64,000 nt of DNA from Lingula anatina (lineage: Eukaryota > Animalia > Brachiopoda), in NCBI GenBank assembly GCA_051362555.1, contig CM120649.1, positions 14,136,001 through 14,200,000 on the forward strand, given 5' to 3'. The position numbers and the translations under genes were made by a program. The notes beneath the pieces were generated by a model. That model ran no database searches. It was not told the origin of the DNA and saw only the letters and a list, made by a program, of their open reading frames with translations. Each line of letters starts with the position of its first letter. Within the stretch, counting starts at the first letter, position 1. This document shows positions 4,215 through 45,781 of this stretch, piece after piece.

Positions 4215-4290
4215 TTAAATGGACTGAAACCAGACGTTTCGTCCTGTTTAATTTAACAAGGTGACATTTGAGAAATGTATTTAAGTCACA
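4215..4290 (+). promoter_or_regulatory. Conserved proximal promoter block of the S8 genes (also about 26381-26452 and 42948-43020)
   Basis: ACTGAAACCA and AACAAGGTGACATTTGA are invariant in all three copies, about 150-220 nt upstream of the ATG. A TATA-like TATTTAA/TACATAA follows, while the flanks of copy 1 have diverged. Confidence 0.55.
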
Positions 4291-4441
4291 GTTTCTACAA
4301 GCTTTGGCACTAACGGACTCGGTGGTATCTCGGGTTTGCTTTGTTAAAAAAGGTGACGAACGGTTCGTGATTTGTGAAGTACAAAACACTCTACTCAGCC
4401 GACAATTGTTAAACAACCAATTTGGTGGAAGAACCACAATC

Positions 4442-5964
4442 ATGAAATTTTTGCTTTTTGCCTCCGCGCTTTTCATGCTTCTCGCGTTAGAGCAGGTGCA
4501 TGCCAGTGAAAGTGAGGAAACACCGCCAGGACTGAAGTTGAAGAAGGAAAAAATCCCCAAGAACCGAAGACTAAAGAATATGAAAAGGGAAAATCCCGCA
4601 GAAATGAAAAAGATGATGAAGGCGAAAGGACTGATAGACATCTCCGAGAAGAAAGGTTTAGGTACGTAACGGACGTTTTATTTAAATAAAATATGAAGCG
4701 TGCGTAGATTCCCTGTAACGTTACTACTTGTTTATTAAATGACTCATAGTTCATTTGGCAAATCGATGATATTTATAACATCTGTTTATCAAAGTTATTG
4801 TTATCACTTTGCATTTCTTTTTTTTAGTGCCTCTAATTACCCCTACGGATGGTACAGCCGTTCCCAATGAATACATTGCCCGTCTTCTGCCTGGTGGCAA
4901 GTACGGAAGAAGTAGGTCCACAGCTTAAAAATTCAATTCCGTACAATTCAGATTTATTTCCGTACTAATGCACTAGTCCGCAGATCGAATATTTAACTGG
5001 CACGTCTTATTATTTAAATTGGCTTAGACCAAGGAGACATAAACTTACAATTTGGTACCAAACCTACACTGTAATTACTTAGTCAATACGAAAAGGTATA
5101 TCTGTTTAACTTGCAACAAATATTTTAGAAAACAAATAAAAATCCCCAAATAAAATTTTTAACCAACTTTCTTACCAAAATGAAAGTGAATTACTTGATA
5201 GATAACTTTTAAAACGAAATCAGAACAAATTACACTCTAGTATAAAATCAATTATAATCTGTATAAAGATGTGTCTTCTATAAGGTGCAGTAAGCCGTAC
5301 TTATTAGTCCTATGTTGTTTTCTATACCGAGAATCGGTAAAATAATATCTTATTTCGTAATTGATATATTCTACCTACCTATGTTACGCCTAGAATTTAC
5401 ATTTTCAATTATATTCCCTTTACAGTCCGCCGCATCCTGAAAGGAAGAGGTTCCCAACAAAGCGTGAAGTTCAACAGAAAAAGCAGCTTCGTCATTCTTA
5501 GGGATATAAATGATAGGTATGGTTTTTGTTAACTCATTCCTTTTCGATCGAGAGCATTGGTTAGGAACTAAGCGACCGTTTGATTTGGTATCATATTCAT
5601 TATTTGATGTTTGATTTTTTACAATATTAATGATATTTTCTTCATCTTTTTATCCAGTATGATTTTTCAAATATCATAGTTCAACTTTATTTGATACTTA
5701 CGTTTGGGAAGAAACTTAACACAAATTTATTTAAAATATGCATAATTTGTCCTGAAACCTGTTATTTAATTATTATCGTTACTGAAATACTTCATTTTTT
5801 TAGTGACCTTCAACTGCTTCGCCAACTAACTGACGATATTGAAGAAATCGAACAAGCTAAAAAAATGTCGCTAGAACTAAGTCATTGTGAGGGTTTTTTC
5901 CCGGCTGCTGAAACATGGGTAAATATCATCGCATGTGCATGTGCATGCATGAGTACGTTTTGAG

Positions 5965-5999
<35 letters not shown>

Positions 6000-6307
6000 A
6001 CTACTGCATACTGCATACAACCTCTTCTCTGAGTACAAGTGATTATTATTATAATTATAAGTAATACAACCACTGACCTCTACCATGAAAAAATTTATCT
6101 TGATATAAATTCCGTACTTATTATACAGAATTTAGACAGAATAGACTTCACTCCGGATGACGACCGTTTTGCTACTTGGGCGCTCGGTTCTGGTATAGAC
6201 GCATACGTCATGGACACTGGAATTAACCCTGATCACAGTGACTTTGGGGGAAGAGTTCTGCCAGGTAAGTGGTATTTAAATGAAATTACAGAAAAGAGAG
6301 AAGGAGA

Positions 6308-6381
<74 letters not shown>

Positions 6382-7168
6382 ACTTGGCACAAGACAAAAA
6401 TCGGAAAGAGAACGGTTCTCAGCAGAGTTCTTTGTTGTTTTTCCAGGATGGCACGGGAGTTATTTCTCCGATAGCAGAGACACACATGGTCATGGTACCC
6501 ATGTGGCCAGTACGTTAGGCGGCGCCACCTATGGAGCAGCCAAGAAGGTCACCCTCATCCCTGTCAAGGTATGCGACGGAAGAATATGTTCGTCTTCGGA
6601 CCTCCTGGCAGGACTGAACTGGATAAAAACACGAGTTCAACAAAACAAACGCCTATCAGTAATAAATATATCAATCGGTTTTCCGTATACTACGTATATA
6701 AACGACGCAGTGTACGCGGTACTGGACGCAGGCATCCCGGTGGTAGTCGCCGCTGGAAATGACGGCAAGGCCGATGCGTGTAATGTATCCCCGGCAAGCG
6801 TAAGCGGAGCCCTCACAGTTGGCGCTACCCAGATAGATGATACTTTGTATCAGTTGACTAACATCGGGCCGTGTGTCGATATTTACGCTCCAGGGACGAA
6901 AATAAGGGCCGCCAACTACGCAAACACCAACGGTTGGATAGAGAAAAGTGGGACGTCAATGGCGTCCCCTCTCGTCGCTGGTGCAGCCGCGGGAATGTTG
7001 CAGGTTCTGCGCGATGCTGGGTACATCAGCCAACCGTCTGTAAGCGTCGTTGATAAAGTCAGCTTTTACATCGTCACCATTGCAGAGAAGGGCACAGTGA
7101 AGGGACTCCCGTCTACGAACAACAACAATGTTATGCTTCAGACCAGCTGCATTGTTACCGGAGCTTAA
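4442..7168 (+). CDS. Secreted subtilisin-like serine protease (S8A, proteinase K / PCSK9-like catalytic domain), copy 1, about 455 aa
   Basis: Exons 4442-4661, 4828-4911, 5426-5516, 5804-5918, 6129-6264, 6447-7168, all GT-AG and phase-consistent. Signal peptide MKFLLFASALFMLLALEQVHA, I9-like prodomain (VPNEYI...IEEIEQ), triad motifs DTG, HGTHVA and GTSMASP, oxyanion AAGN. Confidence 0.93.
5969..6376. repeat. (GT)n at about 5969-5997 and (GT)n(GA)n at about 6313-6376, in S8 introns
   Basis: Directly visible dinucleotide runs. Confidence 0.95.
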
Positions 7169-8969: not shown

Positions 8970-9951
8970 ATAAAACGACAGAAAAAGATGTCTTATAAAG
9001 AAAGACACTATTTAAAGATAAATTAACTCTAAATTTTCATTTGTAAAATAACAAACTGAATAAATACACCGTTAAATCTGGGGGTTGTCACGTGACCTCA
9101 CCGATGCGGACTCCGAGGGGATTCCCCTTGTAGGAAATACCATTCGTCATCCTGAACGTCAGGAAGGTGAGAGGAAGGTGAGTATAGAGGCTGGGAACAT
9201 CTTCTCCACTTTCTTTACATATCTCTCAGATGTTCATGTTATATAAGTTATCAGATCCGTTAAGTTTTGAACTCACACCACGAACAGGTTAAAACTCAGT
9301 AAGTATCTTTCGTAATTGTCGACGGTGGTGATCAGTATATACTGGGACCAAGGTTGCTGAAGGTCATGCGGAACTTATACTGTACAATCATTATAAAGCA
9401 AAATATATTTGTAAAAAGAGTCGTGTTTGATGTGAAGCATGTACGTGGTCTTAAAATAAGTTTTGAGTGACAACGATGTGTACGTTTTAAATACTAATGG
9501 TCATGAAATAATTTACGCGTTAAAGCTGCTCGCATAATGTAAGCGAAACGTGGAATTCCCACCGTCAGGAGAATAAAGATATGTTCGATCTCTCCTCCGC
9601 TAATAAAAAAGACCTGCGCCCGGTGATCGGTTTTAATAAAATGGTCAAGCTTTTGTCTCCAGATGATGTAATTGTTCTGTTTTATCGTCCTTAATTCAAG
9701 ACTGATAGCACAAATACCATTAGTTTCTCTTTGGAAACATTGTTTTTGTTTACGCGTGTTGTCAACGATGGGGACTTTCCCGTCGTCACCACCCTGCAGT
9801 TGTGATAATTGCGTCTCGGTAGCAAGCGAGTTATGGATGAGACTAAACGACAGAAGAAAGATGGCTTATAAAGAAAGATACAATTTAAAGATAAATTAAC
9901 ACTGAATTTTACTTTGTAAGATAACGAACTGAATAAAAATACCTTTAAATC

Positions 9952-9988
<37 letters not shown>

Positions 9989-10560
9989 GATGTCAAGTGG
10001 CCTCTGTCAGGGATTTTCCTAAGAAATACCTGATCAAGGTCAAATCAGCACCAGGAATATTAGTGGAGGCTGGGAATATTTCCTCGACTCACCGTTACAT
10101 ATCTCCAAGATGTACATATACTTCAAGTTATCTGATCCGTTCGGTTTTGAACTCACAACACTAACGGGTTAGAAATACTCAGTAAGTAGGACTATCGTTC
10201 GTAATTATCGACGGTGGTGATCAGCATATACATGCTGCACTCATACTTTATAATCGTGATAAAGGCAAAATATATGGATCTGTAAAAAGAGTAATGTTTG
10301 ATGTGAAACATGTGCCTGGCCTTAAAATAAGTTATGAGTGACGTTGATTTGTACGTTTTAAAAATAATTGGTTATAATTGACGCGTTAGAGCTGCCCGCA
10401 TTATGAAGGGGAAACATGGGATTCCCGCCGTCATTATATTAAGACCGATAGCACAAATACCATTAGTCTCTCTGTTTTTGTTTATGCGTGTTGCCATGTA
10501 ATGCATTAACAATCGGGACTTTCCTGTCGTCACCACCTCCCAGTTGTGACAGGTGTGTCT
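8970..10560 (+). repeat. Diverged tandem duplication (units about 8970-9830 and 9843-10560) upstream of the ANK-TIR gene
   Basis: Shared blocks include aaacgacagaa...ttataaagaaaga...tttaaagataaattaac (about 8973 and 9846), tcgacggtggtgatcag (about 9319 and 10208) and gatagcacaaataccattagt (about 9704 and 10447). Confidence 0.85.
9117..10524. promoter_or_regulatory. Cluster of NF-kB/Rel-type binding sites upstream of the ANK-TIR gene
   Basis: GGGGATTCCCC 9117-9127, GGAATTCCC 9552-9560, GGGACTTTCC 9771-9780, GGGATTTTCC 10010-10019, GGGATTCCC 10418-10426, GGGACTTTCC 10515-10524. A probable non-coding first exon ends at donor AG|GTAACT 10581/10582. Confidence 0.7.
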
Positions 10561-11072
10561 TGGTACATGCAGCAAGGCTAGGTAACTTTTTAATAAACTG
10601 ACTACCTTGGTGAATTAATTCAAACTGTGTGTCCTTAGTAGTTTGTGAAAATGCTTTTCCTGCTAAATATAAGTACCTACACCGTTATCATAATAACATG
10701 TAATTTAAATCCCCAAAGAGACACTTTCAATCAAATAATTCATTAAAGAAAACTGTTTATACATTTCGAAATAAATAATGTAGAATGTCTCAAAACTTAT
10801 TTATTTTGTTTGTTTGTTCGTGTAGTTATTTTTGTCCTGTTAAAAGGACAAGTGAAGAAAGCCTCCTTTGACAATTGACATTTTTGACGGGTATGATAGT
10901 GCCATTTCAAAATATGCATAACCTGACAAACTGTGTTTGGTCTTTATAATGTTACTATAGAATACAGATAATGACCGTTCCATCTCTTCTGTGCAAATCT
11001 CGTCTCAAGTAAAAAAAAGAAAAAAAAAACAAAAAAAAAAACACCGTGCTTGCCTTTGTCTGTTACAGATTC

Positions 11073-14000
11073 ATGACAATGAAATCTCTCTGCGAGGCTG
11101 CAAGAAATGGTGATATCAACACAGTGAGGGGTCTGTTAGAGACTGGAGTGTTTGATGTGAACCAGATATATGTAAGTTTGTCAATATTGAAATAAATAAT
11201 GAGTAGTAGTTGTCCTTATACTAACTTTATGGACGAAAATAAGTCAGTTATACATTAAGGTAAAATGGTTAGAATTTATAATGATGTAATATTTATAATT
11301 AACGAGTATGGCCGAGAAATGTACAGAACTTAGCTTATTATTTCTTTATATCATTGTTACATCGTGCAGTTTCAAATATATGATCGATGTTAAATTGTAA
11401 AAATAATTTTAATAGTATGAAAAACGTAACAGTCTAACCTCTGAAAAGTATTTACAAATAACCTATCCCCGTATATACTTTATGTATATGGTTGCACGTG
11501 GACTTTAAGGGACACATTTGATATAAGAATTATGTAGATCGGATTAAACGGCGAAAGAAAGGTGGCAGAAAAAAACTTAAAAAAGGCTTATACAGTACTG
11601 CCGCTATCATTGTGTAGAATAAGTACACGGTCGTCTGCTGTGAACGAGGGGGGCGCAAACAGTTTATTTATTTATTTATTTATGTGATTTGTAAAATGGC
11701 TGTTGTATGTTATTCTAATATCATTAATAGATTATTATAATTATGTCAAAAATCGTATGCTTTATATGTAAACATTGTGTATCCTCAGTTTGGTCGCACA
11801 CCTCTTCATTACATTGCTGATGGTGGTCACAGCGATGTAGCAGCTCTACTCATTCAGCACGGAGCTGATCCCTGCAGTACAGACAGCGTATGTATATGTA
11901 TTTGATTTGAAACATGTACTTGATTATGCAATGCATAAACATATTGCACGCAAAGTACAAAATGTTACTTCCACTCATGTAAAACCAATTATAAAAAAAA
12001 GAAAAAAATGGAAGAAAATAAGAAAATTTAAAAATGAAAAAATTAGGCCCATTATTATCCTAAAAAGCCTCCATGCTGTTATTATATATGTTTAGGTAGA
12101 CACAGTGGCAAGATTGTTGGAAAATATAATACACCAAAGTTTTCAATGATTTGTTAAATAAGTATAGCATTTTATTCTGATATCCCTATCATGTCGTAAA
12201 GTGTTATCCTTCATGTGTAAATAATGTGTATCTTCAGGATGGTGATACACCTCTTCATTCGGCTGCTCTGCATGGTCACAGCGATGTAGCAGCTCTACTC
12301 ATTCAGCACGGAGCTGATCCCTGCAGTACAGACATGGTATGTGTATGTATTTGATTTGAAATATATACTTGATTATGCAATGCATAAACATATTTCACGC
12401 AGAAAACGAGATGTTAGTTCCACTAATGCATAGCCGAAAATTGAAAAATGCCACACTATTAAATTTGGTGAGGTAGAAGTCACAACACACAATGCTTTTC
12501 AAAGATTTGTAAAATTATTACTTTATATGTAAATATTGGGTATCTTCAGGATGGTCGTACACCTCTTCATGCGGCTGCTACGCATGGTCACAGCGATGTA
12601 GCAGCTGTACTCATTCAGCACGGAGCTGATCCCTGCAGTACAGACATGGTATGTGTATGTATTTGAATTAAAATATATACTTGATTTTGCAATGCAATAA
12701 ATATATTTCACGCCCAGTACGAGATGTTACTTCCACTCTTGGATAGCCAAATATTGAAAGTGCAACACTGTTAAATGTACAGTGAAGTAGACACGGTGGC
12801 ACAATTGTGAGAAGTCACAACACACAATACTTTTCAAAGATTTGTCAAAGCATTACTGTATTTTATTCTGATATCATTAACAGATTATGCTCATGTCGTA
12901 AATTGTTATCCTTCATGTGTAAATAATGTGTATCTTCAGGACGGTGATACACCTCTTCATGTGGCTGCATTTGAAGGTCACAGCGATGTAGCAGCTGTAC
13001 TCATTCAGCACAGAGCTGATCCCTGCAGTACAGACATGGTATGTATATGTATTTGATTTAAAATATATACTTGATTTTGCAATGCAATAAATATATTTCA
13101 CGCCCAGTACGAGATGTTACTTCCACTCTTGGATAGCCAAATATTGAAAGTGCAACACTGTTAAATGTACAGTGAAGTAGACACGGTGGCACAATTGTGA
13201 GAAGTCACAACACACAATACTTTTCAAAGATTTGTCAAAGCATTACTGTATTTTATTCTGATATCATTAACAGATTATGCTCATGTCGTAAATTGTTATC
13301 CTTCATGTGTAAATAATGTGTATCTTCAGGACGGTGATACACCTCTTCATGTGGCTGCACTTGAAGGTCACAGCGCTGTAGCAGCTGTACTCATTCAGCA
13401 CAGAGCTGATCCCTGCAGTACAGACATGGTATGTATATGTATTTGATTTAAAATATATACTTGATTATGCAATGCATTAACATATTTCACGCCGAAAACG
13501 ATATGTTACTTCCTCTCATGCAAAGCCAAAAATTGAAAGCGCAACACTGTTAAATATATATATATGTATGATGAGGTAGACACGGTGAAAAAACTGTTTG
13601 AAATTACAACACACAATACTTTCCAAAGATTTGTCAAATCATTATTGTATTTTATGCTGATATCATTAACATATTATCATTATTTTGTAAAATTGTATGC
13701 TTCATATTTAAATGTTGGGTATCTTCAGTATGGCCGTACACTTCTTCATGTGGCTGCTGGGCGTGGTCACAGCAATGTAGCAGCTTTACTCATTAAGCAC
13801 GGAGCTGATCCCTGCAGTACAGACATGGTATGTATATGTATTTGATTTGAAATATATACTTGATTATGCAATGCATAAACATATTGCACGCAAACAACTA
13901 GATGTTACTTCAACTCATGCAAAACCAAACATTAAAAATGAAAAAAAAAAAAAAATGGAAGAAAGGAAGAAAATTTTAAAATAAAACATTTAGGCCTATC

Positions 14001-17000
14001 AGTATCCTTAACAGCCCCATGCTGTTATTTTATATGTTTAGGTAGATACAGTGGTAAAATCGTTAGAAGTCACAACACACAATAGTTATCGAAGATTTGT
14101 CAAATCATTGCTGTATTTTATTCTGATATCATTAACAGATTAAATCACATGGTACATTTCTATCCTTCATATATAAATATTGGGTATCTTCAGTTTGGTC
14201 GTACACCTCTTCATGTGGTTGCTTTGCGTGGTCACATCGATGTAGCAGCTGTACTCATTCAGCACGGAGCTGATCCCTGCAGTACAGACAAGGTATGTAT
14301 ATGTATTTGATTTAAAATATATGCTTGATTTTGCAGTGCATAAATATATTTCACGCCAAATACGGGATGTTACTTCCAATCATGCTTATCCAAATATTGA
14401 AAGTACAACACTGTTAAATATGGTGAGGTAGACACGGTGACAAAACTGTTTGAAATTACAACACATAATACTTTTCAAAGATTTGTAAAATTATTACTTT
14501 ATTTTATTCTGATAACATTAACAGATTATAATCATGTCGTAAAATCGTATGCTTCATATTTAAATATTGGGTATCTTCAGAATGGTCGTACACCTCTTCA
14601 TGCGGCTGCTTTTGAAGGTCACAGCGATGTAGCAGCTGTACTCATTCAGCACGGAGCTGATCCCTGCAGTACAGACATGGTATGTGTATGTATTTGATTT
14701 AAAATATATACTTGATTTTGCAATGATACACCTCTTCATGCGGCTGCTCTGCATGGTCACAGCGATGTAGCAGCTGTACTCATTCAGCACGGAGCTGATC
14801 CCTGCAGTACAGACAAGGTATGTATATGTATTTGATTTAAAATATATACTTGATTATGCAATGCATTAACATATTTCACGCCGAAAACGATATGTTACTT
14901 CCTCTCATGCAAAGCCAAAAATTGAAAGGGCAACACTGTTAAATATATATATATGTATGATGAGGTAGACACGGTGAAAAAACTGTTTGAAATTACAACA
15001 CACAATACTTTCCAAAGATTTGTCAAATCATTATTGTATTTTATGCTGATATCATTAACATATTATCATTATTTTGTAAAATTGTATGCTTCATATTTAA
15101 ATGTTGGGTATCTTCAGTATGGCCGTACACTTCTTCATGTGGCTGCTGGGCGTGGTCACAGCAATGAAGCAACTTTACTCATTAAGCACGGAGCTAATCT
15201 CTGTGGTACAGACATTGTATGTATATGTATTTGATTTGAAATATATACTTGATTATTCAATGCATAAACATATTGCACGCAAACAACTAGATGTTACTTC
15301 AACTCATGCAAAACCAAACATTAAAAATGAAAAAAAAAAATGGAACAAAGGAAGAAAATTTTAAAATAAAACATTTAGGCCTATCAGTATCCTTAACAGC
15401 CCCATGCTGTTATTTTATATGTTTAGGTAGATACAGTGGTAAAATCGTTAGAAGTCACAACACACAATAGTTATCGAAGATTTGTCAAATCATTGCTGTA
15501 TTTTATTCTGATATCATTAACAGATTAAATCATATGGTACATTTCTATCCTTCATATATAAATATTGGGTATCTTCAGTTTGGTCGTACACCTCTTCATG
15601 TGGCTGCTTTGCGTGGTCACATCGATGTAGCAGCTGTACTCATTCAGCACGGAGCTGATCCCTGCAGTACAGACAAGGTATGTATATGTATTTGATTTAA
15701 AATATATGCTTGATTTTGCAGTGCATAAATATAATTCACGCCAAATACGGGATGTTACTTCCAATCATGCTTATCCAAATATTGAAAGTACAACACTGTT
15801 AAATATGGTGAGGTAGACACGGTGACAAAACTGTTTGAAATTACAACACATAATACTTTTCAAAGATTTGTAAAATTATTACTTTATTTTATTCTGATAA
15901 CATTAACAGATTATAATCATGTCGTAAAATCGTATGCTTCATATTTAAATATTGGGTATCTTCAGAATGGTCGTACACCTCTTCATGCGGCTGCTTTTGA
16001 AGGTCACAGCGATGTAGCAGCTGTACTCATTCAGCACGGAGCTGATCCCTGCAGGACAGACATGGTATGTATAAGTATTTGATTTGACATATATACTTGA
16101 TTATGCAATGCATAAATATAAATCACGCCAAATACGGGATGTTACTTCCAATCATGCTTATCCAAATATTGAAAGTACAACACTGTTAAATATGGTGAGG
16201 TAGACACGGTGACAAAACTGTTTGAAATTACAAAACATAATACTTTCCAAAGATTTGTCAAATCATTATTGTATTTTATGCTGATATCATTAACATATTA
16301 TCATTATTTCGTAAAATTGTATGCTTCATGTGTAAATATTGCGTATCTTCAGGACGGTGATACACCTCTTCATGTGGCTGCATTTGAAGGTTACAGCGAT
16401 GTAGCAGCTGTACTCATTCAGCACGGAGCTGATCCCTGCAGGACAGACAAGGTATATGTATATGTATTTGATTTAAAATATATGCTTGATTTTGCAGTGC
16501 ATAAATATATTTCACGCCAAATACGAGATGTAACTTCCATTCATGCATAGCCAAAAATTGAAAGCGCAACACTGTTAAATATATATGTATGATGAGGTAG
16601 ACACGGTGACAAAACTGTTTGAAATTACAACACACAATACTTTCCAAAGATTTGTCAAATCATTATTGTATTTTATGCTGATATCATTAACATATTATCA
16701 TTATTTTGTAAAATTGTATGCTTCATATTTAAATGTTGGGTATCTTCAGGATGGTCGTACACCTCTTCATGTGGCTGCTATATATGGTCACAGCGATGTA
16801 GCAGCTGTACTCATTCAGCACGGAGCTGATCCCTGCAGTACAGACAAGGTATGTATATGTATTTGATTTAAAATATATGCTTGATTTTGCAGTGCATAAA
16901 TATATTTCACGCCAAATACGGGATGTTACTTCCAATCATGCATAGCCAAAAATTGAAAATGGGACACTGTTAATTATGGTGATGTAGCGCACAGGGGTAT

Positions 17001-20000
17001 AATTGTTAGAGATCACAACACAGAATATGTCCATGTTATCTATTTATCGAATTATTTTCAACTAATAACAAAAAACTAAATAATCTTCACAAAGTAATTT
17101 TTTTTTTAAATGATCAAAGGTGCCAACCCTTCAGGTTGACAATTGTTTGCATGTACTCTTACATGTTATCCAAACTGTGTGTATCACAGTAAATGAGAAT
17201 ACATTAAAACTAAACTGGGGGTGGTCACGGGATACGGCAGATCTATATGTTTTTTTAACGCGTTATTAATCCCTTTATCAACGCAAAACCTAAAAAATAA
17301 AAATAGTAAACTCTGACATATGAATTTACTGTACTGTACTCTGATATGTTAACACCCTATACTGTCTCACTTTACCTGTAATGTCATTTAAACATGTGTT
17401 TATTATAGAGTGGTATACGTCCCCGCGATCTGCTAAGGACAAACCAGGTTTTCGAAACATTTATAAAGAAATTCGAGAATGAACAAGTCCAGGTGAGCGA
17501 ATTTATTTGAGTCGTATAAGAAACTAGTAGAAGTGGTTTATATGTGTTACTGGGAATCCACGCTCCACCGATGCTCGGTTCGTAACTTTAATAAGCGTAA
17601 AAAATTCAAAGACGTTAAAATACCACTTTTAATATTAATATTACAAACTCAAGGACGGCATCTATCAAAAGCACTTAATACTTAGTGTCTTTTCTTCCAG
17701 CACTTCATTCTCATCTTGTGTTTGGAACATGTTGCTGCTACTATGACCCTTGTTGAGGCTAATGCTCTTTTCAAAGAAGACATGAGTTGCATTTCCCCAA
17801 ATGAACATGAGAACAAGAAGTTAGACAGATTAAAGAATTGGACGATCAGTCTTGGGATTAGAACTATCCGAGAGTTTAAAGCGAGATTGGCGGGTGCAGG
17901 GCATCAAAACTTGACTGGTGAGTGCTAGATAGACGGATATTGTACATGTATTCATACTGAATTGCGAGAAGAAGCACAAGAAATACAGACTGCATTTTTT
18001 TTTCATTTTCAAAGAGTGATTTCATACGCTGAAAGATTGGCAAAAAATGGACTGTACATACGATAGTTATACCTGCCTATTTTAAGCTAGATATGACAGG
18101 TCTTTACAATTTTTACGGTACCCTCTGCCAGCGACCTTTACCAACATAAGGTCATGAGTTGACAAGCTACATATCTGCTTATCATTTGTCATGTAATTCT
18201 GCGATTTGTAATGTGTACTGTGACATCTTATGTTGAATAAAGCGGAACCTGTTTTCGCTTTTGATATAAATACAAGTAAATGTCTTTTATTCTAAAATCA
18301 CAAAGCAATGCAAATGCATGCATCACATATACATCTACATAAAACACTTTTAAAGCATACAGCAGGTAAAGTCACACCCACTATCAACTGATTTACCAGT
18401 ACATTTATTTATATAGTGGCTGCTGCTAATCACTATGCCGAGATCGCCAAAAAGATTACGGACATGTCAGCCGTTTGCTACGGAACATTTTGTCAAGCTC
18501 CTTTGGCACACCGGCACATGATTTCAACGGCTGGTTGTCCCACAGAGCAGAGATGTGAAATGAGGTGAATATAGAAGCGTGTGTATGTGTGTGTGTGTGT
18601 GTGTCAAAGAGCGCAAACCTAATGCAGGGAGATTATAATTCCGCCCATAGCCTCAGTCCTATTCGTATATTAAGTGTTAAGTTAATGGTCTCAGTCATGT
18701 TTTTTGGGTGTCCTGTAATTCAGCCATGTGTTCTATACATATTGGTTAAAAAAGCAGATAGATATGTCACTGCTCTACTAATTGGAAATGGCTAACATGC
18801 ATTTTTAAAATAAATTATCCACCCCCACGCTACTACATCGCTCCAAACGACCAGTTCAGTGTACACACCATAGTTGCATACTTTATGATACGGTTTGTAT
18901 ATGTAACTCTGTACATCAATATTTCTTAACAATTATAATTTTCTTTTAAACAGAATCGGTTTTTCATGTTGTATTGATCATCTCATCAAAATTGACTCAA
19001 TATTTCTACATTCTGTGAAATAAACCTGTAGATATATTATTTCTCCACGTTAAGTGTATACCTACACTGTATAGATAAGCCAACAGTGCACTGACTGTCC
19101 TAATTATTATATATCCCCTTTGGCTCATTCCAGTATGGAGACAGATTCGTACCAATACGATGCCTACTTAGCGCACGCCAGCGACGATGAAGAGGCAGTG
19201 GACGAGGTGAGGGGACAGTTAGAGTCTAATGGAGTCCGCTGTTGTGAGCCTCCCTTGCCAGGATCAATTAAAATAAAATCCATGTGTGAATCCGTCGAGA
19301 TGGCCAAGCGTACGGTGCCTTTCTTTTCCAAAACGTCTTTGTCCGATAATGTATTTCTTAACATATGTGACGTGGCAGAATTCGAAGCTAAAAATAGGAA
19401 AGAAGACGTGGTGATTCCCGTAACCATGGACGTCGGTCCCGAGTCTTTACCACCAGTGGTCAGAGTGCGAAACTGCATAAATTTCCAGAGCCAAAATTTC
19501 ATCCCGTCATTGGTTGATGCCATTAAAGGTAAATGTTCTTAAAACACAGCGTGAACTGATGAAGAACCTTTTTCAAGTTTTAGAACTTTAAAGCGCTTAC
19601 ATAGAAATTTAATGAGCAACTTTGCTTCTACATGTACACATAATATTATTAATCATAGTTAGACACTTCATTTGAAAATATCTCTGTAACACATATCCCT
19701 ACCGCGTATTTATGTTTGTGTTTATGTGTGTGTGTGTGTGTGTGCGTGTGTGCGTGTGTGTGGAGGGGGTGCATTTACTAATAACCCATCCATAAATAAT
19801 ATATGCGTTATTTGATTAGCTTACCCTTTTTTAATGAAGCCGCTCTCCTTTTAGGACCAGCGTGTGCGCCCCTCTATGGCCAACTCCGTGATGAAAACAA
19901 AAATATGAAACAGGAGATTGCAGCAAAGGATGACATGATTCGAGAATTGCGCCAACAACTTGAAGAAAGTAGAGCATTAAACAGACGTCTGCAGGCAGAG

Positions 20001-20027
20001 TTAGAGGTTACGGCCCCTCCAAAATAA
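11073..20027 (+). CDS. Ankyrin-repeat (14x) + death-like + TIR + coiled-coil protein, about 800 aa
   Basis: Coding exons: 11073-11171, then 99-nt ANK exons starting 11789, 12238, 12550, 12940, 13330, 13729, 14194, 14581, 15118, 15579, 15966, 16353, 16750, then 17409-17492, 17701-17917, 18417-18564, 19134-19528, 19855-20027. All are GT-AG, total 2403 nt, open frame. ANK motif GxTPLHxAAxxGHxxVxxxLIxHGAD, TIR motifs YDAYLAHA...LPG...FSK...VIPV...LP, heptad-rich tail. Confidence 0.85.
11700..16990 (+). repeat. Tandem exon+intron array (about 310-465 bp units, commonly about 390 bp) with a higher-order duplication of about 1385 bp
   Basis: Each unit has gtatcttcag + ANK exon + gtatgtatatgtatttgattt. 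Exon trio 13729/14194/14581 recurs as 15118/15579/15966. Confidence 0.95.
14724..14817 (+). pseudogene. Acceptor-less ankyrin pseudo-exon
   Basis: DTPLHAAALHGHSDV...TDK with an intact donor is fused directly to the start of the preceding intron (ttgcaatgatacacct). The splice acceptor and first two codons are deleted, and read-through from the previous exon hits TGA at 14695-14697. Confidence 0.85.
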
Positions 20028-21270
20028 TTTGTCTGTGGATTACAAAAAATGAGAACTACGACTATTATAATTTTTGCCTATTTGATGTAATGTCTCTCAC
20101 TCTCTCTCTCTCTCTGGCATATGTTGTGTTACAGAAAATTTCGTTAAACTTCTCGCATTGAGTTGAAGGAGAACCACCGTTTTTCAATATCCAATATCAG
20201 ATAACCAGAAAATCTATAAATAATTAGGATTAAATGTTAGATTCACTTATTTCACTGCACGGATGGAGAATAAGTAAAAAAGTGTAAATCATTTCTTGGA
20301 AAGAAAAAAGGTTTCATAATGTTGCAGACCATAACCACTAAAGTATACAACCAGCAGTAAAATGATGGCTGATCCAGTGAATACCATGACAACGTGCTAG
20401 CCGGTTGACATAGTAAGATATTTACGCCCTACTTGAAATGAACATAATGGACTAATTTCGATGATCTATCTTGTTTGTTGTTTAATATCATATCCAGCAT
20501 TTAGAATGAATGACCAGCAAGAATCAGTGGAATATATTATGGATTGAGTATAACCATGTTGAATGAAGATATTAACAAGTTATTTCCCTAAATTGTATGA
20601 TGAATGTATTTTAATGAAACTTAATTATTTTGATATTTTCCAATCCAACAATATTATTTGTGAGAATCGTATTTAATTAAATTGTATATTATATATTTGT
20701 ATATTATCATATAATTGTGTATTGTATATTGATTATTAAGTCAAATTTTACTCAAACATTCCATATTATAGGAGGACCGAAATCCGATGTGAAATAACTT
20801 TCTGTGTTTTGTATGTGTAAAATGTGATTGTTGACCACGTGAATAAGGATTTCTTGAATGTTTGTGAGGATGTTTTCATATTGCAGAGCTAGGTGTTGCA
20901 GAACATTCTGAGGTGTGTTTAAAGATTAATTTTACGAGGTGTGCTCGACAAACGACGTTTTAGTGACGTAAAACTAATACAGCACATCGTGACTTAATTA
21001 ACGGTGGATGTGCTGATAAATGACCAGCTGATCTCTTCTACTTGCATAATGTACGTTTACAAATCATCAACAGTGAAACCTTTTATTCGAACAAGAAACA
21101 AGTTTGTAAATCGTTGAAAGAAATTGATTTTACTAGAAATATAGTAAATATTCATCTATGGTAAATGTTTTCCACTGGGCAGTGTTACCAATAGGATAGC
21201 GCTATCCAGTGTTGATGTGAGTGTGGCTGTGCATATTGTAAGTCCTTAACAGCGCTCCCTAATCACTCAA

Positions 21271-21700
21271 GGGTTTTTTGTCAAGTCCGCATTACAGTTT
21301 TCGTATCAAAAGCTATGATAAATTGTGTGGTATTACGTCCAACATCTCTAATTACATATACCAATTCATTTATGTAGTTTGCATTTAGCTATTCAAGATG
21401 GTAGATAAATATTTGCCTTAAGTAATTCATTGGAATGTGTTGTTATTATTGAGACGTTCTTATCCTGTTTTGCGATTATTAAAGTTTTTTAAGAATACGA
21501 CCGAAAAAGGTTTTTTGGCAAGTCCGCATAACAGTCTTCTTATCAAAAGCTATGATAAATTGTGTGGTATTACGTCCAACATCTCTAATTATATATACCA
21601 ATTCATTTATGTAGTTTGCATTAAGCTTTTCAAGATGATAGATAAAGTTATTTATTGAAATGTGTTGTTATTATTAAGATACTTATCCCTATGTTTTTTT
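21271..21700 (+). repeat. Two-copy tandem repeat of about 238 bp (third copy at about 38510-38700)
   Basis: caagtccgca...tatcaaaagctatgataaattgtgtggtattacgtccaacatctctaatta occurs at about 21282, 21519 and 38519. Confidence 0.85.
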
Positions 21701-24056
21701 TTTTTAATTTTTTTTCGTTTTTTTTTTATGAAATACGACCTAAAAAGAGGGGTTTTTGTTTTTCTGGTATGCCTAGATAAGATTTTCACTTGCATTTAAA
21801 TATAATTTCTATTGGACTTTATTATATAGAAGCACAGGCATATTAGACAAAGGTGTTTTAAGGTTCGGTAATATTGGCCAGCTGACATATAAACCACATA
21901 AAATGTATTCTGTTATACTTAATTGACATGCTATATATTTAACAAATTACGTATACATGTAATACCACATACAAACTTCCCATTGTAGAATATACCCTGA
22001 AAACCACAAATGTTTATATCATTTATTATCGTTATATTCTCACTTCAGATCAGGAAACATATTTTCCTATAAGTAAACCGACAATAGAATGTATAGAGAA
22101 GATATCAGAACATTGCATCGTAAAGTTTGCTAGCTGTGATGTATAACTACGCTTTCGATGATTGGTCCGTTATACACGTACTGCATCTACATTGTAGCTC
22201 ACGAGGCTACCATCTCGTTCTAGACCCAACAAATATAAAAGTTAACAGGAGTTAGATGTCGAAATTCATTTCTCAACAAAAACTGGATTTTCAAATTTAA
22301 CAAAGGATTGGTTTTGGTTTTGTACAGTTATTCTTCCATATATGATCTCTGCCCATATAACTTATGCTAAGATAATTGATCACAATTTTGCAACAGAGAC
22401 CAGGTGAAATTTCTCCCAGGGTTAAATGTATATGCTAAGCATCTAGCTGATGTTTGTCTTATTTATTGAGAAAAGACAAGTACCAAATATGACAGAAGTA
22501 ATCAAATATGCTTATTACATTAATGTATTTTCGTAAATACATTTTGTTTATACAGAATGATAAGCTCAATACAAAGGTGAGCCAATAGCGCTAGGTCTAT
22601 TTGTTATATCTTCGGTAGGAGTCAGACCTCTTAAAAGCAATGGCGAAAAAAAAAACACCCAAATACCCCATTTTCACGAGGATCAGTCAAATGGAGGCAT
22701 GACTGGTTTTCTGATGAAACAAGATTTCTTCGAGACTGCATAATTTATGTTAAGATCGGAATAAAACAGATTAGCTGAAGACTGTGAGTTGAGAAGTGCT
22801 GGATAGAGTGGTGGTTCTATTCACCTTTAGACTGCCATTCCTTTAGAAGCTTGATCTAGTTTGGTGTTTCACAGACAGCTATTACCTGAATTATGGGAAT
22901 TCTGACGACAGAAATGGTGTAAGGGCTCATTTCGGTCGTACTCTTTTGTTACAATATGGCAATGGTCCATCTCAACTTGATCGTAGAACTCAAACATTAT
23001 TCAGTGACCAGGGAAATCAGCAAGTAGACTGGTCTGTTTTTCCTGTTTTGAATCCCACTTAGCCTTGTTGGGATGATTTAGAAAATATTAGTAGGAGGTC
23101 CGGCGGAATACATGGGATAAGATGAAGTAGCCGTTCTTGTTGTGGGTGGTTATATCTGAGTAACGAAACTCCAGAAAATGGTGAAGTCATTACCTTGAAG
23201 ACGAGATAACAGAATCTGGGTTTGTAGCGGATACCCTAGATGATGATTAATTCTTAAATGTACAGTATTGCTTTTGGGTGACTCTGCTTTTCTCCTCTAA
23301 TGCCTGCTTTCTTGGGCTTGGCATTTGCATTTCTCAGTATTTTTCCACTTTTTCATAAATGTACAATTGATCACTGGAAGTTGCCCAAGCGTATAAATGC
23401 TCCCGGAATGTACTGTAACTTGAAGGTAGAACTTGGAATAACAATGAAGCACTAATGAGCTGGTTGTAAGTTACATTTTCTCTTATTTTGAACTTACTGA
23501 AATCGAGGAATCAGAACTCTTTTGGAATATTCCATCATTTGAAGCAAGAGTGTATATAATATTGACCTCCAATGTGGATATAAATAAAATTTAGTTTAAA
23601 AAATGTAATATATGAATATTGACTTTGGGTGAAATTGTCTCTGGGATTTATTGACCCCACACTTGGATAATTGACCAAGGCAGAAAATGCGAGCATAACT
23701 AAGGTGACTCATAAAATCAGTTTTTTTTAGTAAAATGGTGCAGCTCCGCATCCATATTGAATATAAGGATATGTCATTAGTAGAGATTGCAGCGCATTAC
23801 AGGAGACAGACAAGCTGGTTCGTTACGAACTGTTGAATAAATGGAGGAGAGCCTGGAAGTTTGCCCCAAACTAAGGATGCATACCAAATGATGTAGACTA
23901 CATCGACGTCAAAAACTTAACCTGACTTTATGTGTTTTAACACGCAAAAACGTAATTTTAATGCAGCGTTCAGTAATTTAAAAAGTTTGCAATTGAATAA
24001 AGCTCGAAAAAAAAAATTCCGAGGTTTTCATTCAATGGAATTACCATCTGGCAATG

Positions 24057-24361
24057 ATAACTACTGACAGGGAGCCAGAGTATTGTAGGGCATATCAAGC
24101 GTCGGCGATTTAAATGGCTCGGCCATGTACTCAGGATGGACGAGAACCGAGTACCAAAGGTAGCTTTGAGATGGACATCACCTGGAAAAAGAAAGAGAGG
24201 AAGGCCCAAGACCACCTGGCGCCGAACAGTGATGGCAGAGCTGAGGGAGGGGGACCTTACATGGGGACAGTCCAGCACGTAGCCAGAGATAGGGCCAAGT
24301 GGAAAGAAGTGACTGTGGCCTTATGTCCCACACGGGACGAAGAGCATTGATGATGATGATG
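24057..24361 (+). mobile_element. 5'-truncated RTE-clade LINE 3' end
   Basis: Translation gives KRRRFKWLGHVLRM...PKVALRW...GKRKRGRPKTTWRRTV...ARDRAKW, followed by a (TGA)n tail. It is flanked by AATG and absent at the paralogous site about 40190. Confidence 0.88.
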
Positions 24362-26572
24362 AATGGATAACACGCAGATACTGGCAGATATAACCGTATT
24401 CTATTTCAAACGTATTGGTTTGAATGGCTTGAATGGAGAGAAGTGATGCAGTGGCATTTCCCTATAAAGCGCACAGTTTATATCTCAAAATCGTTTTCCT
24501 TTTCCAAGGTTTCTTCCTTTTCAATTTTTTTTAGATCTGGCAATCTGATCAGACTGCTAGATGCACCCATTCCTTGTGTTGGCTTTTTTGTACTTGATAG
24601 AAATTTAGCAGATATTTTAAAATTATTCATTTTAGTCTTGCAAGGATACGCATTGGAGTCATGCAATGGAATAATTTCCTCTGAATTTTTTAAATATAGG
24701 TATTCGTTTCATAACATTGGCACCAAATGGATGGGGTAAAAGTTTACAGACGTGATGGAGAAAAAAAAAGTACGCAATTCAGTGGTAAATTCATGTAATA
24801 TATGTCATAAAATATGACATTATATATCTGTATGTTTAACATGTTGGCAGTCAAGAAAATACAACTTCATTTATTGTGCTGGATGATTTTTCTTTTTTTT
24901 AAGAAAGAGAGAAACTGAACAAGGCGTACACTTACTGTTTTATCTGTGGTTTTCATAATGGAAATTAATGTATCAACTCTGCTCGAAGCAGGTACGATAC
25001 TTTTTTTTGTCATCCTGTCACAGCTTCTGCCGTAGGTTTCATCTACATAGCAACCATTTACACGGGGAGTGAGATCCTGAAAATACTGTATGCTTTCAAT
25101 TAATGTGCATCGTTGCCTACCTCCTCAAGATCTAGCCTCTACCAGGGCCGCAGATTAATAATGTACACTTCTTTCTGACAGCAGATAGTTGCGTCATGAA
25201 TTAGCAAGAGACGTATCTGTGAATATGTTATAATAAATTAATATGTCATCCTAGTAGGTCACAGTACAAAAGGTAGATACGGTTCAAAATAATTACATGA
25301 CTGTTGATTTAATTAAAAAATGCACAATATCTGCGTTTCAGTGCTACTTACAGCTTCAGTAAAATGATTTTAGAAGTAGGCACAATTAGCAGGAAAAAAG
25401 GCAAAACCTAAAATCGGTGCTGCTCATTATATTAAGATATTACGACATAAGAAGACTAAAACGCTCAGTTTGTGATGAAGTTAAATTTAAATTCCGTTTC
25501 AACTGACATGTTTTAAGATCATAGGAAAAGTCACTTCCCACATCATCATTGTGCTTAGTAGGCAGCACATTCCATAGAATGAGGGTAGTCAATCAAGTAA
25601 CAATTACAAACTTAATGAGGTGCGCATGGGTACATATACAGTAACCTTTTACCTCTACCATGCTTAAAGCATTACAATTTTAGATTATCCACTGGCAACC
25701 TGGGGATCAGAGAAGTTTTATGAGAATTAACGTATATCTTCGTGAGGTTGCAGCATTTTGCACAGCCTGCATATTAAGTTATTCTGTCAGATGCTCCAGG
25801 TGGTCAGACACATGTAAGTAAGCAGTTGTTAAAGACAAAATGAGAGGTTACAAATGTTTGTATATGCTATACCATTTGGTTTTAGTTTTAAACGTGATAT
25901 TTTGTTGAATTTTTTGTGGGGCCACGGAAAACTAATTTACTTAATCATCAACTCATTATTTAATTCATATACAAATCGATAAATTACTTCAATAATTGAT
26001 TAATTAATTTTCGCGATAATATAACCCATTACTGAACTGACTTGAAAATTTAATTGAAACCACTCCATAATATTTTAGCATGATGTTCCTGAACGGTAGG
26101 CAAACGAATAAATTAACAAATAATTAACCAGTCAAATCTAATTGTTTATTACTTAGTTCCCCTAACGATAGTTAAAAAAAAAACATTGAAATCCACCTTC
26201 AACCGAGAGACTGCCCCCAAAACAGAGTGTGCGCTTATTTTATTTTATTTTACTTTACTTTATTTTATTTTATTTTATTTTACAACAAAATCGGTAACTC
26301 TGCCTTTAAAATGATTCATCACGGTGCACAACTGGAACAAATGACCCCATATCTAATAAGTTACGATTCTACCACGCGTCATTTAATGGACTGAAACCAC
26401 ACGTTTTTCGTGCTTTATTTAACAAGGTGACATTTGAAAGATGTACATAAGCCGTTGTTTCCGAAGCTTTAACTTAAACGGACTCGAGCGAATATTGAGT
26501 CTGGTACAGGTTGAACACATTCTTCAGAGCTGACCACAGTGAGACGGCCAATTTGAGAGACGAACCGCAATC

Positions 26573-29500
26573 ATGAAACTTTCTCTGTTTCTTGCCTCCA
26601 TGCTTTTGGCTCTTTTAGCGTTAGAGCAGGTCGATGCCCATGATGCCAATGATGCCAATGAGACAGACAAGATACCACCTGGAGTGAAGTTTGAGAAGGA
26701 AAAAATTCCTGAAAACCGAAGACTAAAGAACATAAAGAAGGAAAATCCCGCAGAAATGAGAAAAATGATGAGGGAAAAAGGATTGATAGACATCTCCGAG
26801 GAGAAAGGTTTAGGTACGTTTCAAACATTTGTTATTAAAAAGAAAGTTTTGTCACTTTCCAACTAGTCTAATTCAATCTTACGGCAATGTTAAAGTCTGG
26901 CTCGCCATTTGATATTTTGCTCACCATTATTGTTATGCCAATTTATGCGAAATTTATACTAAGCGTTATAAAGAATTAAACAGATAATCTCGATATGCGT
27001 GAAACACAATTCTTCATATAGCTTTGAAAATCCAATTTTAATTTACATTAAGTGTATTTATTAATGGGCATTTATAATTTTCAATATTTCGTGTCAGTTA
27101 TCGCTTAAAATGTACCAATATTTTACATGTCAAACAATTGGACTATTTGAAATTATAAGCACATTTGTGTTTCAATTATACTGCCTTTTCGTCGTTGATA
27201 TTTACTATCATGTGTGTATTTGTTTTCCATTATCATTTATATATGGTATAAGGCTTGGTATATAATATGATTAATTAGATAGAGAATTTGTTACACTTTT
27301 ATCAATATTGTGTATTTCTCATGCCCTTGAATTCTAAACCATCTAATTATCAAAGTTTTGGTTATCATTTTACATTTGCAATAGGTATTTATAAATATAT
27401 GATATCATATCGATAGCTGATTTAATAAATTTATCAAAGTTTTTGTCATTACATTGGATTTCTGGTGACACTGTTGTTTGGTGTAATTTATTCGTCAAAT
27501 GTATTTTTAATCATTAGTGTGTATTTCTTGTACCGCTGGTAAAGCCTCGGTCACAACCGGACGCACGAATTTCATTGCAGGCCGTGGAGTTCGTATATAG
27601 AGGTAGAGAAAATGTTTCAATGGAAAGGCGCAAGTCTGCCTTGCGAGTTGCAAGGGCCACGTGAGATGTTCTTTCAAGCCGGGACGCTAACTGCAAGGTG
27701 CGTTGGCCTTGGAAATTGAACTCATTTTTTGAGTTCATTTTGCTACTTGCGTATGTGGCACGCACTCAACACTTACAAGAGAATGCAATGTACGGCGAAA
27801 GCAGTTCCCTTTTGCGTCATTTTTGCTTCACACTTAAACACGCTTGTAATGACGTGCTGATGGCGAGCGTCAGTTTGCCTCCTGTTCTCCCCTTCTTTCT
27901 TTTACCTCATGCCTTCTTTTCTACTCTCTTAGATTCTTTCCCTTGTCTTTTGGAGGCATAGAATTGAGCTAAATTTGATATTTTTGTAAATTGTTGTACA
28001 CGTTGCACAATCGACGTTCATTGTCGAGGCACGAAAGTCCACCGTGAGCACGCCTTTTATACTTCAGCCGTGGGGGTGACGCACGTGCGACGCATTTTTG
28101 CTGTGCTTTTGACTTTTTACGTCAGCTGTGAGGGCGTGCGCCGTAATCAGCTCGCAAAGGGCACTTACTCCTTCCTTGTTTGCGACGTGCGTCTTGTACC
28201 ACGCACTTCTCACTTGCGAATTCCTTGCGAGGGGAGAAAGTTACGCTTGCGGCCTCGCTGTCCGCAGATTATTCGTAGAATCTTTTGGACATGTCCAATA
28301 TCCTCCGTACGCGCTAACGAACTGGAAATTTCGTAAGAAGAACCTGCGTGGGACGTGAGATTCTGCGGAAAATTTGAACGCAAACAGCCCGTAAGAGCCC
28401 GTACGGCCGGTTGTGACCGAGGCTTAATTGATATCTTGTTAATATTCTTTCTAGTGCGGCTGATCACTGCTAAGGATGGTTCTAACGTTCCCAACCAGTA
28501 TATTGCCCATCTTAAGCCTTGCGGAAAGTATGGAAAAAGTAGGTGCATCTAAAAAAAAGTTATTTCATTAGTACAATTAGCTTAATTTTAGTATCGTTGT
28601 GTACAAGACTAGAAAATTTATTTTTAAAAATCCATATACCCGATAAAAGATGAAATAAAAGAACTGGGTTACTGGAACGTATTGTCTTAACTACACGTAT
28701 ATGTATTAGGGCAATCGTATATGAAAAGTATTTAGGGTCTGATCCCTACATGCCATGTGAAACAAATTTTAGTATTGTTATCAAAAGTTATCAATTTTTG
28801 GCAAAAAAGTGAAATAATCGACCAAAGGATATTTTCAAGACTGTCTGTAAAGACACTAAATTTCTAATACATATTCAGTCTATGTGTTTTTTTCATGACA
28901 TATAGCTTAGTACTGTTGTGACCGGATTAGGGTTATAGTCGAAGTATTGGGGTTGGTATATGGAACGAATGCCATCTGTACAAAGTAATGGGGAATGCAT
29001 CGTGGTTTCTATCGGAATAACAATGTTGTGCAATGTTCTGTATTTATGCCGCAGAGAAGCACCAAAGAGACAAGTTCAGATAAGTTCGTAACCTAGTCAA
29101 TTATTTATTACTAAACGATACATTTCTTTACCCAACCAAAATATTTTTGTGAGACAAATTTAAAGCCTCCCCCCCCCAAAAAAAAAAAAATAACAATAAC
29201 TAAACCCAATTTCCACCCAAATAGATGGCGAAAATCTAGGGCGATTAATCTGAAAACGAAATAAGTAAAACATATACATGTAAGCACATAACAAATTATT
29301 ACCTGCTTGTGGATGAGTCCGCTCTCTGGTGCAAAGTGCTATCACTTTTATTTACCAAAATCGATTACTAACTAATCGATTTAACATCCATTTCAGTTCG
29401 CAAAATCTTGAAAGGAAGAGGTTCCCAACAAAGAGTAAAGTTCAACAACAAAGATAGCTACGTCATACTTAGGAATATAAGTGCTAGGTATGATATGTGA

Positions 29501-29674
29501 GGTCATTCCTTATCTGTGGTTCAGCTTGTAATGGCAGTTTTATTTACGAAATGACTGTTATTCAGAATTTGCTTCATAATATCTTCATTTATACATTGTA
29601 TTTTTATCCAATGTGATTTAAAGATATCACATTAAAATTTTATTAATTTGTATGTTTTCCGGAAGACATTCCAC

Positions 29675-29727
<53 letters not shown>

Positions 29728-45101: not shown

Positions 45102-45172
<71 letters not shown>

Positions 45173-45716: not shown

Positions 45717-45781
<65 letters not shown>

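Follow-up and report, generated by a model that had tools for sequence, protein, structure and literature searches.

The window, a 64,000-nucleotide stretch of the Lingula anatina genome, carries on its forward strand a gene whose coding model spans 11073-20027, with an ankyrin array forming its front part. The model is open over 800 amino acids, has only GT..AG introns, and comprises an N-cap, 13 ankyrin repeats, a C-cap, a death-like domain, a TIR domain, and a coiled coil. The N-cap coding exon (11073..11171, 99 nt), similar to those of paralogues, runs from the ATG to a phase-0 donor. Ankyrin exons 1–8 (11789..14679), each of 99 nt in phase 0 and separated by repeated introns, are followed by a 39-nt intron stub joined to an acceptor-less 14th repeat copy (14680..14817), a block duplication containing exons 9–11 (14818..16064), and exons 12 and 13 (16353..16848), whose joint is present in run X8. 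The intact exons start at 11789, 12238, 12550, 12940, 13330, 13729, 14194, 14581, 15118, 15579, 15966, 16353, and 16750. As an earlier, sequence-only reading of the locus had proposed, there are 13 of them behind the N-cap; all have AG/GT ends, and each is symmetric phase 0 in our gene model. The three exons scanned all exceed the Pfam cut-off for ankyrin PF00023 (38.9–45.2 bits vs 21.1), and the repeat register agrees with that of DARPin chains.

The sequence-only reading stopped short of the 3′ part, where the gene continues to 20027 with death-like and TIR domains. This part comprises a C-cap exon (17409..17492) with an identical translation in RefSeq protein P0002, a death-domain-like helical exon (17701..17917), an exon encoding the end of the helical domain and a linker (18417..18564), the TIR exon (19134..19528), and a last coding exon with the stop codon (19855..20027). 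The last exon is a predicted coiled coil, forming a long helix in models and giving only weak matches to coiled-coil families in the Pfam scan. Over its C-terminal part, the product matches a Lingula anatina protein with ∼99% identity. We found no signal peptide and no clear transmembrane helix in the 800-amino acid model (maximum 19-residue hydropathy 1.77).

The most striking feature of the array is the distribution of its variation. The six most diverse codons among the 13 exons are 11, 12, 1, 3, 8, and 33, and the residue sets at these positions match those listed earlier. Their diversity (0.44) is well above that of the introns (0.15) and the framework (0.06), and when intron triplets were drawn 100,000 times for each of three exon subsets, none reached it. 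Identity among repeats is 0.87 in the framework and 0.32 at the variable positions, and codons 4, 6, 7, and 13, interspersed among the variable ones, are invariant. The introns between copies are highly similar, as described (mean p-distance 0.147). The framework, described as near-identical, is homogenized but not wholly fixed, since exon 15118-15216 has six framework amino acid differences from its twin.

The classic randomized positions of DARPins, 2, 3, 5, 13, 14, and 33, presumably correspond to exon codons 33, 1, 3, 11, 12, and 31. The equivalence of variable and randomized sites proposed for codons 33, 1, 3, 11, and 12 holds, whereas codon 31 is invariant; the summed diversity of the six classic positions is matched by only 85 of 1,107,568 six-codon sets. 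The top six codons coincide exactly with positions 2, 3, 5, 10, 13, and 14, which are the ones randomized in a published ankyrin library (PMC3308923). It is this library numbering that places them on the ankyrin binding face, and together with diversity above the intron rate it bears out the predicted location of the variable sites. However, the same source states that library diversity was modeled on natural ankyrin repeats, so that the match alone is weak evidence. The weight rests instead on the excess over introns and on an allele comparison described below.

Our own M1a/M2a fits gave likelihood ratio statistics of 37 and 40, with ω about 11 at codons 8, 11, 12, 33, and 1 or 3. The prediction of dN/dS above 1 at variable sites is borne out in direction, but its size is inflated by recombination among 33-codon repeats. 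A signal of selection on the concave face is found with a recombination caveat, the face being assigned through the library numbering (PMC3308923). Framework ω was fitted near 1 because the synonymous sites of the exons are homogenized as well. At the variable codons synonymous diversity is also raised (pS about 0.3; third positions 0.35), so part of the excess may represent old differences kept from conversion, not fast substitution, and the introns, partly homogenized themselves, are an imperfect neutral clock.

In a rival explanation, the gene encodes a housekeeping multi-site scaffold or undergoes neutral churn, conversion homogenizing the repeats while six positions vary through the tolerance of the ankyrin fold alone. 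The same positions vary in most ankyrins, and natural repeats served as the model for the library (PMC3308923); constraint could be loose, one copy being broken and half of one exon degenerate; and in the framework pN (0.060) does not fall below pS (0.044). Tolerance, however, predicts diversity no higher than that of introns, whereas that observed is three times above it. The invariant codons between variable ones and the face differences in a probable allele also argue against this explanation, which is already disfavored and which we regard as quite unlikely.

Several features point to gene conversion and unequal crossover, as had been suggested from the array's organization. Four gametes occur at 10 of 78 site pairs, consistent with mosaic repeats. 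Exons 4 and 5 arose by a recent duplication of one unit, the copies showing 4 differences over 390 nt, and 14818..16064 is a recent three-unit duplicate of 13429-14679; here 14 differences are spread over 1247 nt, with half of them (7) in one exon half. Protein P0002 differs from the window gene at positions 8, 11, 12, and 33 of one repeat and elsewhere at 2 of 338 residues; from this comparison it is probably an allele, although it could be a very young paralogue instead. The phase-0 symmetry would matter mainly because crossover between the similar introns could then add or remove whole repeats while keeping the reading frame. A search of 11000-17600 with a recombination-signal (RSS) motif found no RSS-like site. 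We rejected an assembly artifact as the source of the broken copy and of exon 15118-15216, because X8 contigs contain both with 0 differences, including the junction of the acceptor-less copy, although X8 has its study code in common with the best DNA source and may not be independent of it.

RNA evidence, taken from same-label runs, indicates that the gene or close relatives are transcribed and spliced as modeled, an expectation of the original proposal. Three 3′ junctions are covered, namely C-cap exon to helical exon (17701; 11 reads), exon 18417..18564 to TIR exon (16 reads), and TIR exon to last coding exon (21 reads), in addition to repeat-to-repeat joints. X18 reads are mostly 90–95% alike and may therefore derive from paralogues. 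Runs X12, X13, and X15 have almost no depth on exons, and their peak at 17500-17580 was rejected as a gene signal because it lies within an intron and its ends are loose at either side.

The RNA data also bear on the possibility that combinatorial splicing is the main diversifier, with cells leaving out varying sets of the 13 symmetric exons so that one gene yields many binders. All exons are in phase 0 with near-identical splice sites, and exactly 99 residues, or three repeats, separate RefSeq isoforms X1 and X2 of the paralogue LOC106150616, although such isoforms within repeats can be mapping artifacts. The acceptor-less copy (14719-14817) must itself be skipped for a full-length product, its 39-nt stub introducing an in-frame stop if retained. 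Against this, among the 15 of 49 X8 joints listed, all 5 canonical GT..AG repeat-to-repeat joints fit neighboring exons, within a short side of 22–30 nt, and give no sign of the exon skipping suggested earlier; apparent skips were rejected as ambiguous. X8 contigs lose rare variants, short-read contigs cannot resolve repeat-exon splicing, and none of the X8 pieces listed covers the whole array. Dscam-like docking sites were not found among the 25 of 183 inverted repeats listed, which are weak and AT-rich (72–85%, 20–29 nt). We consider splicing unlikely to be the main diversifier.

The TIR_2 match lies well above its Pfam cut-off (39.9 bits vs 28, E 6.9e-10). Among solved TIRs, the family profile is nearest to metazoan TIR-STING (E 3.6e-20) and scores TIR-STING and TLR2 above MyD88 (E 6.6e-10); phmmer with the TIR exon alone matched no PDB chain. 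One column, aligned with a Glu of 6WT6, is Ile in the window gene and P0002 and Glu in 7 of 12 TIR-bearing relatives. We take this column to be the catalytic Glu position of helix C, so that the window gene lacks the residue that marks an enzymatic TIR. TIR NADase activity depends on this Glu (10.64898/2026.04.20.719644). The mixture of Glu-bearing and Glu-less TIRs suggests that the family includes both enzyme and scaffold members.

The middle domain, which gives no direct Pfam Death match in the window gene or family proteins, is likely a death domain. Its profile matches P0027 (E 2.3e-5) over the Pfam Death domain of that protein, and the two top-listed Atlas structures are death-domain proteins, with TM scores of 0.50 and 0.54 that fall under the tool's bar. 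The single-sequence fold of P0002 is poor (pLDDT 43.5), and for the fold of the paralogue P0005 (pLDDT 85.6) searches were filled by ankyrin matches. Pfam scans of the non-repeat exons and 12 family proteins revealed no NACHT, NB-ARC, or ROC-COR domain, and the 800-amino acid model leaves no room for a NACHT or NB-ARC domain.

The family includes at least 13 Lingula loci with 0–13 repeats each, and within four paralogues variation again falls at these repeat positions. When relatives beyond Lingula were sought by profile, the results were swamped by ankyrins or consisted of one LRR-TIR protein, a weak hint that the family may be lineage-restricted. No title or abstract listed in our literature searches described the family or its architecture, and the listed papers searched for it made no mention of it, although a paper on Lingula immunity may list the architecture; nothing relevant was found on 99-nt ankyrin exons. 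Exons the size of one repeat are also known from vertebrate ankyrin genes.

Because a variable ankyrin array precedes a TIR domain and, between the two, a likely death domain, we favor, with reasonable but incomplete confidence, a model in which the gene encodes a cytoplasmic immune sensor and in which selection, together with conversion and unequal crossover in the germline, diversifies the predicted binding face. The candidate receptor role proposed earlier thus gains an immune-type output, immune function itself being inferred. The ankyrin groove would bind a foreign or damage-marked protein, and binding would cluster the molecule, perhaps with help from the coiled coil. A signaling or cell-death complex could then be nucleated by the death-like and TIR domains, which follow one another as in MyD88. 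The window copy may act as a scaffold or modulator rather than an NADase, since it is without the Glu that is kept by most paralogues and that would make those NADases.

The diversity could also serve self/non-self or symbiont discrimination, or the guarding of host proteins, instead of pathogen binding, with the diversification mechanism unchanged. Fungal variable-repeat NLRs include allorecognition genes (PMC4986451), and our data show selection for diversity, not its cause; a cytoplasmic protein that has outputs of TIR and death-like type and belongs to an expanded family nevertheless fits pathogen-driven turnover at least equally, and we judge this alternative quite unlikely. A more ambitious extension of the sensor model, an anticipatory intracellular repertoire of ankyrin-death-TIR receptors whose exons are reshuffled between generations and skipped (or somatically recombined) within the animal, seems to us doubtful. 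If it were true, each animal or cell would show many DARPin-like binders wired directly to TIR signaling, in a cytoplasmic parallel to VLR or Dscam.

The proposed sensor resembles fungal NLRs with highly conserved ANK repeats (Podospora Pa_3_8560 and Pa_2_8180). There too, ankyrin repeats that are almost identical evolve in concert, the selected sites lie in the hairpin and inner helix, and the array is linked to a death or signaling effector (PMC4986451). High internal repeat conservation is set there at 85% by T-REKS; our framework identity of 0.87 was obtained by another measure. Repeat-number polymorphism between individuals also characterizes this type of NLR, compared with a variation of 0–13 repeats between paralogues in Lingula. 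In contrast to those NLRs, the Lingula gene has an animal host, lacks a NACHT or NB-ARC switch, and carries its repeats at the N terminus, each on its own exon.

Brown-algal exon-shuffled receptors have in common with the Lingula gene the shuffling of symmetric exons that each encode one repeat, the presence of inactivated copies, evolution under diversifying selection, and a candidate immune role. They differ in having LRR or TPR rather than ankyrin repeats, phase 2 (ROCO) rather than phase 0 exons, and ROC-COR or NB-ARC rather than death-like and TIR domains; alternative splicing of repeat exons is reported for them, compared with one annotated case, in a paralogue, in Lingula. MyD88 likewise has a death domain and then a TIR in one cytoplasmic chain, but not the variable binding array and coiled coil of the Lingula protein. 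ANKDD1A-like proteins and the Lingula ANK-Death proteins P0027 and P0122 share the ankyrin array, C-cap, and death domain (Atlas leads under 0.9), but have no TIR and less homogenized repeats (framework identity 0.73 in P0027 vs 0.87).

We therefore view the gene as an animal, NOD-less form of the fungal and brown-algal variable-repeat receptors, with a presumed immune function. Few fast-diversifying intracellular receptors are known in invertebrates, and here one animal gene joins the fungal strategy of concerted, face-variable ankyrin repeats to the brown-algal strategy of one repeat per symmetric exon, wired to death-like and TIR output without a NOD switch, in a directly testable receptor family. 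Designed ankyrin libraries (PMC3308923) likewise vary these six positions within a constant framework closed by N- and C-caps, whereas the Lingula array is natural, germline-encoded, 13 repeats long, and fused to signaling domains. Nature and protein engineers thus reached the same six positions, making the family a natural source of binder statistics.

The array in the ankyrin-TIR gene (11073–20027, +) comprises 14 repeat copies, located by motif scan at 11789–16848. Thirteen are 99-nt exons bounded by AG and GT, confirming the 13 intact ankyrin exons described in the sequence-only reading, whose residue sets at the variable positions are also correct. The remaining copy (14719–14817) is broken, lying 39 nt past the preceding donor with its acceptor and first two codons gone and a 2-nt overlap at the junction. 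Each of the three repeat exons scanned scores above the Pfam threshold for Ank, and their register agrees with DARPin chains.

The array is part of a larger gene, in which six non-repeat coding exons close an 800-residue open frame and every intron is GT..AG. The model starts with an N-cap exon and the 13 repeat exons, followed by a C-cap exon (17409–17492, +), a helical domain (17701–17917 and part of 18417–18564, +), a TIR exon (19134–19528, +; TIR_2, E 6.9e-10) and, in the last coding exon, a predicted coiled coil (19855–20027, +). Lingula anatina LOC106163266 matches the TIR exon at 99% identity, and its RefSeq protein (P0002) is modelled with identical junctions all the way from the final repeat to the stop. 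The helical domain has no direct Pfam match. A profile of 12 family members matches a Lingula ANK-Death protein (P0027, E 2.3e-5) across its Pfam Death domain, and death-domain proteins also occupy the two leading Atlas structure rows, both below the tool's bar. The helical domain is thus probably a death domain in degenerate form. Inspection of the protein sequence reveals no signal peptide and no clear membrane helix. Immediately upstream of the gene is a tandem duplication (9187–9567 and 10066–10433, 76% identity), and near 10583 lies a donor-like site that may be part of a first exon without coding sequence.

Ranked by nucleotide diversity, repeat codons 11, 12, 1, 3, 8 and 33 are the top six, although codon 20 ranks above codon 33 once the first exon and near-duplicates are removed. 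These correspond to DARPin positions 13, 14, 3, 5, 10 and 2, and the chance of a given six-codon set is 9e-7. Five of the six positions of the classic DARPin randomised set vary in the window repeats, exon codon 31 being invariant. PMC3308923 describes a library randomised at exactly our six positions (2, 3, 5, 10, 13, 14), which form one exposed surface. This match alone shows little, because libraries of this kind imitate the variability of natural ankyrins. The introns provide a stronger test: the six codons reach a diversity of 0.44, compared with 0.15 for the 277 intron columns and 0.06 for the framework. In 100,000 draws, sets of six intron triplets never reach 0.44, and the same holds when the exons are de-duplicated to sets of 8 and of 7. 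The variable sites thus lie at predicted binding-face positions and exceed the intron level. In our own M1a/M2a codon fit, made on two trees, the LRTs were 37 and 40 and omega came to about 11 at codons 8, 11, 12, 33 and 1 or 3; the dN/dS above 1 that had been anticipated there is recovered, but in fits inflated by recombination and multi-nucleotide changes, with framework omega near 1. Synonymous diversity is raised too at the variable codons (pS about 0.3 versus 0.04), and some of the excess may consist of long-standing differences protected from conversion by selection. Whether through fast change or shielded old differences, selection keeps the repeats different at the predicted face. Neutral repeat churn or a fixed scaffold is an improbable reading beside the intron comparison.

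Recombination between repeats, also proposed earlier, is supported by four-gamete pairs, a diversity gradient and duplications. Of the 78 informative site pairs, 10 show four gametes, some of them involving two-base differences at codons 3 and 12, and sub-repeat patches have therefore been exchanged. Diversity is 0.04 at framework four-fold sites, 0.07 and 0.10 at exon-adjacent intron ends and 0.17 mid-intron, the exon-ward uniformity that exon-centred conversion would give. A single unit was duplicated recently, its copies differing at 4 of 390 nt, as was a block of three units, with 14 differences in 1247 nt, 7 of them within half of one exon. These seven, at 15167–15216, are also present in contigs of sequencing run X8, and the introns flanking that exon are about 99% identical to their twins; the cluster is either a conversion patch or a local mutation burst. 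Between P0002 and the window, the repeat differs at positions 8, 11, 12 and 33, and no window copy has the P0002 residues at 8 and 11; of the 338 residues downstream of the repeat, just 2 differ. On this alignment P0002 would most simply be an allele with a different last repeat, or else a very young paralogue. Reads and contigs hold extra junction variants at positions 33, 1, 3 and 8, in no window copy, which probably come from paralogues; run X1 contains window-identical pieces alongside look-alikes several percent different.

Of four RNA runs compared over 16700–20200, one (X18) covers the exons. Three of the modelled junctions are supported, by 11, 16 and 21 of its reads, and it also has joints running from a repeat-exon end back to the same exon's start; the death-to-linker and last-repeat-to-C-cap joints are absent among its best 15 of 18 joints. 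Run X8, labelled 'DNA?', we infer to be RNA-like because of its GT..AG joints and near-empty introns. Transcription of the gene or of close relatives is thus supported by splicing at three 3′ junctions, in reads mostly 90–95% alike to the window. The intronic stretch 17500–17580 is deeply covered by each of the four RNA runs, with loose ends at either side, and is probably a short dispersed element that many transcripts carry.

Contigs of X8 hold exons 13330–13428 and 15117–15216 and the broken-copy junction with 0 differences from the window. Both introns downstream of the broken copy are also present, a retention that hints at poor splicing there; the intron stub, if retained, has an in-frame stop. 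Eight joints are found among the best 15 of 49 X8 rows, five of them GT..AG: four resemble skips and the fifth is a neighbouring pair. Each skip-like joint also fits a neighbouring exon pair across its 22–30 nt short side. The other three carry codon 32–33 letters found in no window copy, therefore represent other repeats, and were rejected as skips. Contigs lose rare forms, so some skipping may still occur, but splicing as the main diversifier seems unlikely; RefSeq isoforms of the paralogue LOC106150616 differ by exactly three repeats, a lead only towards exon skipping.

In a search of P0002 against 1.84 billion representatives, all 10 full-length relatives looked up carry Lingula anatina names. 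With E below 0.001, the middle-domain profile matches 17 of the 251 proteins collected (13 loci by accession); 12 of them are its own training rows, and two are MetaClust members without a name that belong to Lingula clusters. Repeat number ranges from 0 to 13 across the family, and repeat frameworks of the paralogues group into subfamilies. In four paralogues with at least five repeats, the within-array mean difference is 0.76–0.80 at the six positions and 0.18–0.27 elsewhere. One relative (P0004) has N- and C-caps with zero internal repeats, and another (P0001) has tandem TIR-coiled-coil units. The confidently predicted fold of the paralogue P0005 (pLDDT 85.6) appears as an ankyrin solenoid, a helical bundle, a TIR-like α/β domain and a long helix. 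The solved TIR nearest to that of the family is a metazoan TIR-STING; related TIRs also occur in Lingula proteins of TIR-STING and TIR-TPR type (P0022 and P0043). At the TIR-STING helix-C Glu column, 7 of 12 TIR-bearing family rows have Glu and the window gene has Ile. Animal TIR activity requires a catalytic Glu, according to a preprint (10.64898/2026.04.20.719644), and the window copy would be a non-enzymatic family member.

Considered together, these data favor, with reasonable though not strong confidence, a cytoplasmic sensor with a predicted target-binding groove. Target binding by the variable groove would cluster the protein, and the death-like and TIR domains could then recruit partners, as MyD88 does. 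Array diversity would likely arise in the germline through conversion, crossover and selection, with phase-0 exons preserving the frame. The output may be immune, as the sequence-only reading suggested; a recognition role aimed at non-pathogen targets, which would use the same variable groove, seems quite unlikely. Fungal NLRs with conserved ANK repeats work alike, as described in PMC4986451, but the Lingula gene is without a NOD domain; brown-algal exon-per-repeat receptors share the build (PMC3341825 and PMC11378527), whereas the Lingula repeats and outputs differ. The gene belongs to neither class, and is distinguished by its exon-per-repeat layout combined with a TIR. Among the titles and abstracts listed by the literature searches, none describes the family.

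The gene is located between the first two of three related secreted subtilase genes (4265–7168, 26543–31404 and 43119–47837, all +), with Peptidase_S8 on both catalytic exons scanned of the three. A segmental duplication relates 21274–33344 to 38458–50806. An ORF encoding DUF1759, zinc-knuckle and protease domains (33349–37933, −), flanked by duplicated 64-nt tandem repeats, belongs to a Bel/Pao-type retrotransposon. Gag and a long pol ORF with protease, RT, RNase H, integrase and chromodomain (54833–59860, −) constitute a chromovirus-like LTR retrotransposon, and the domain scan places a guanylate cyclase catalytic domain exon at 52078–52350 (−).
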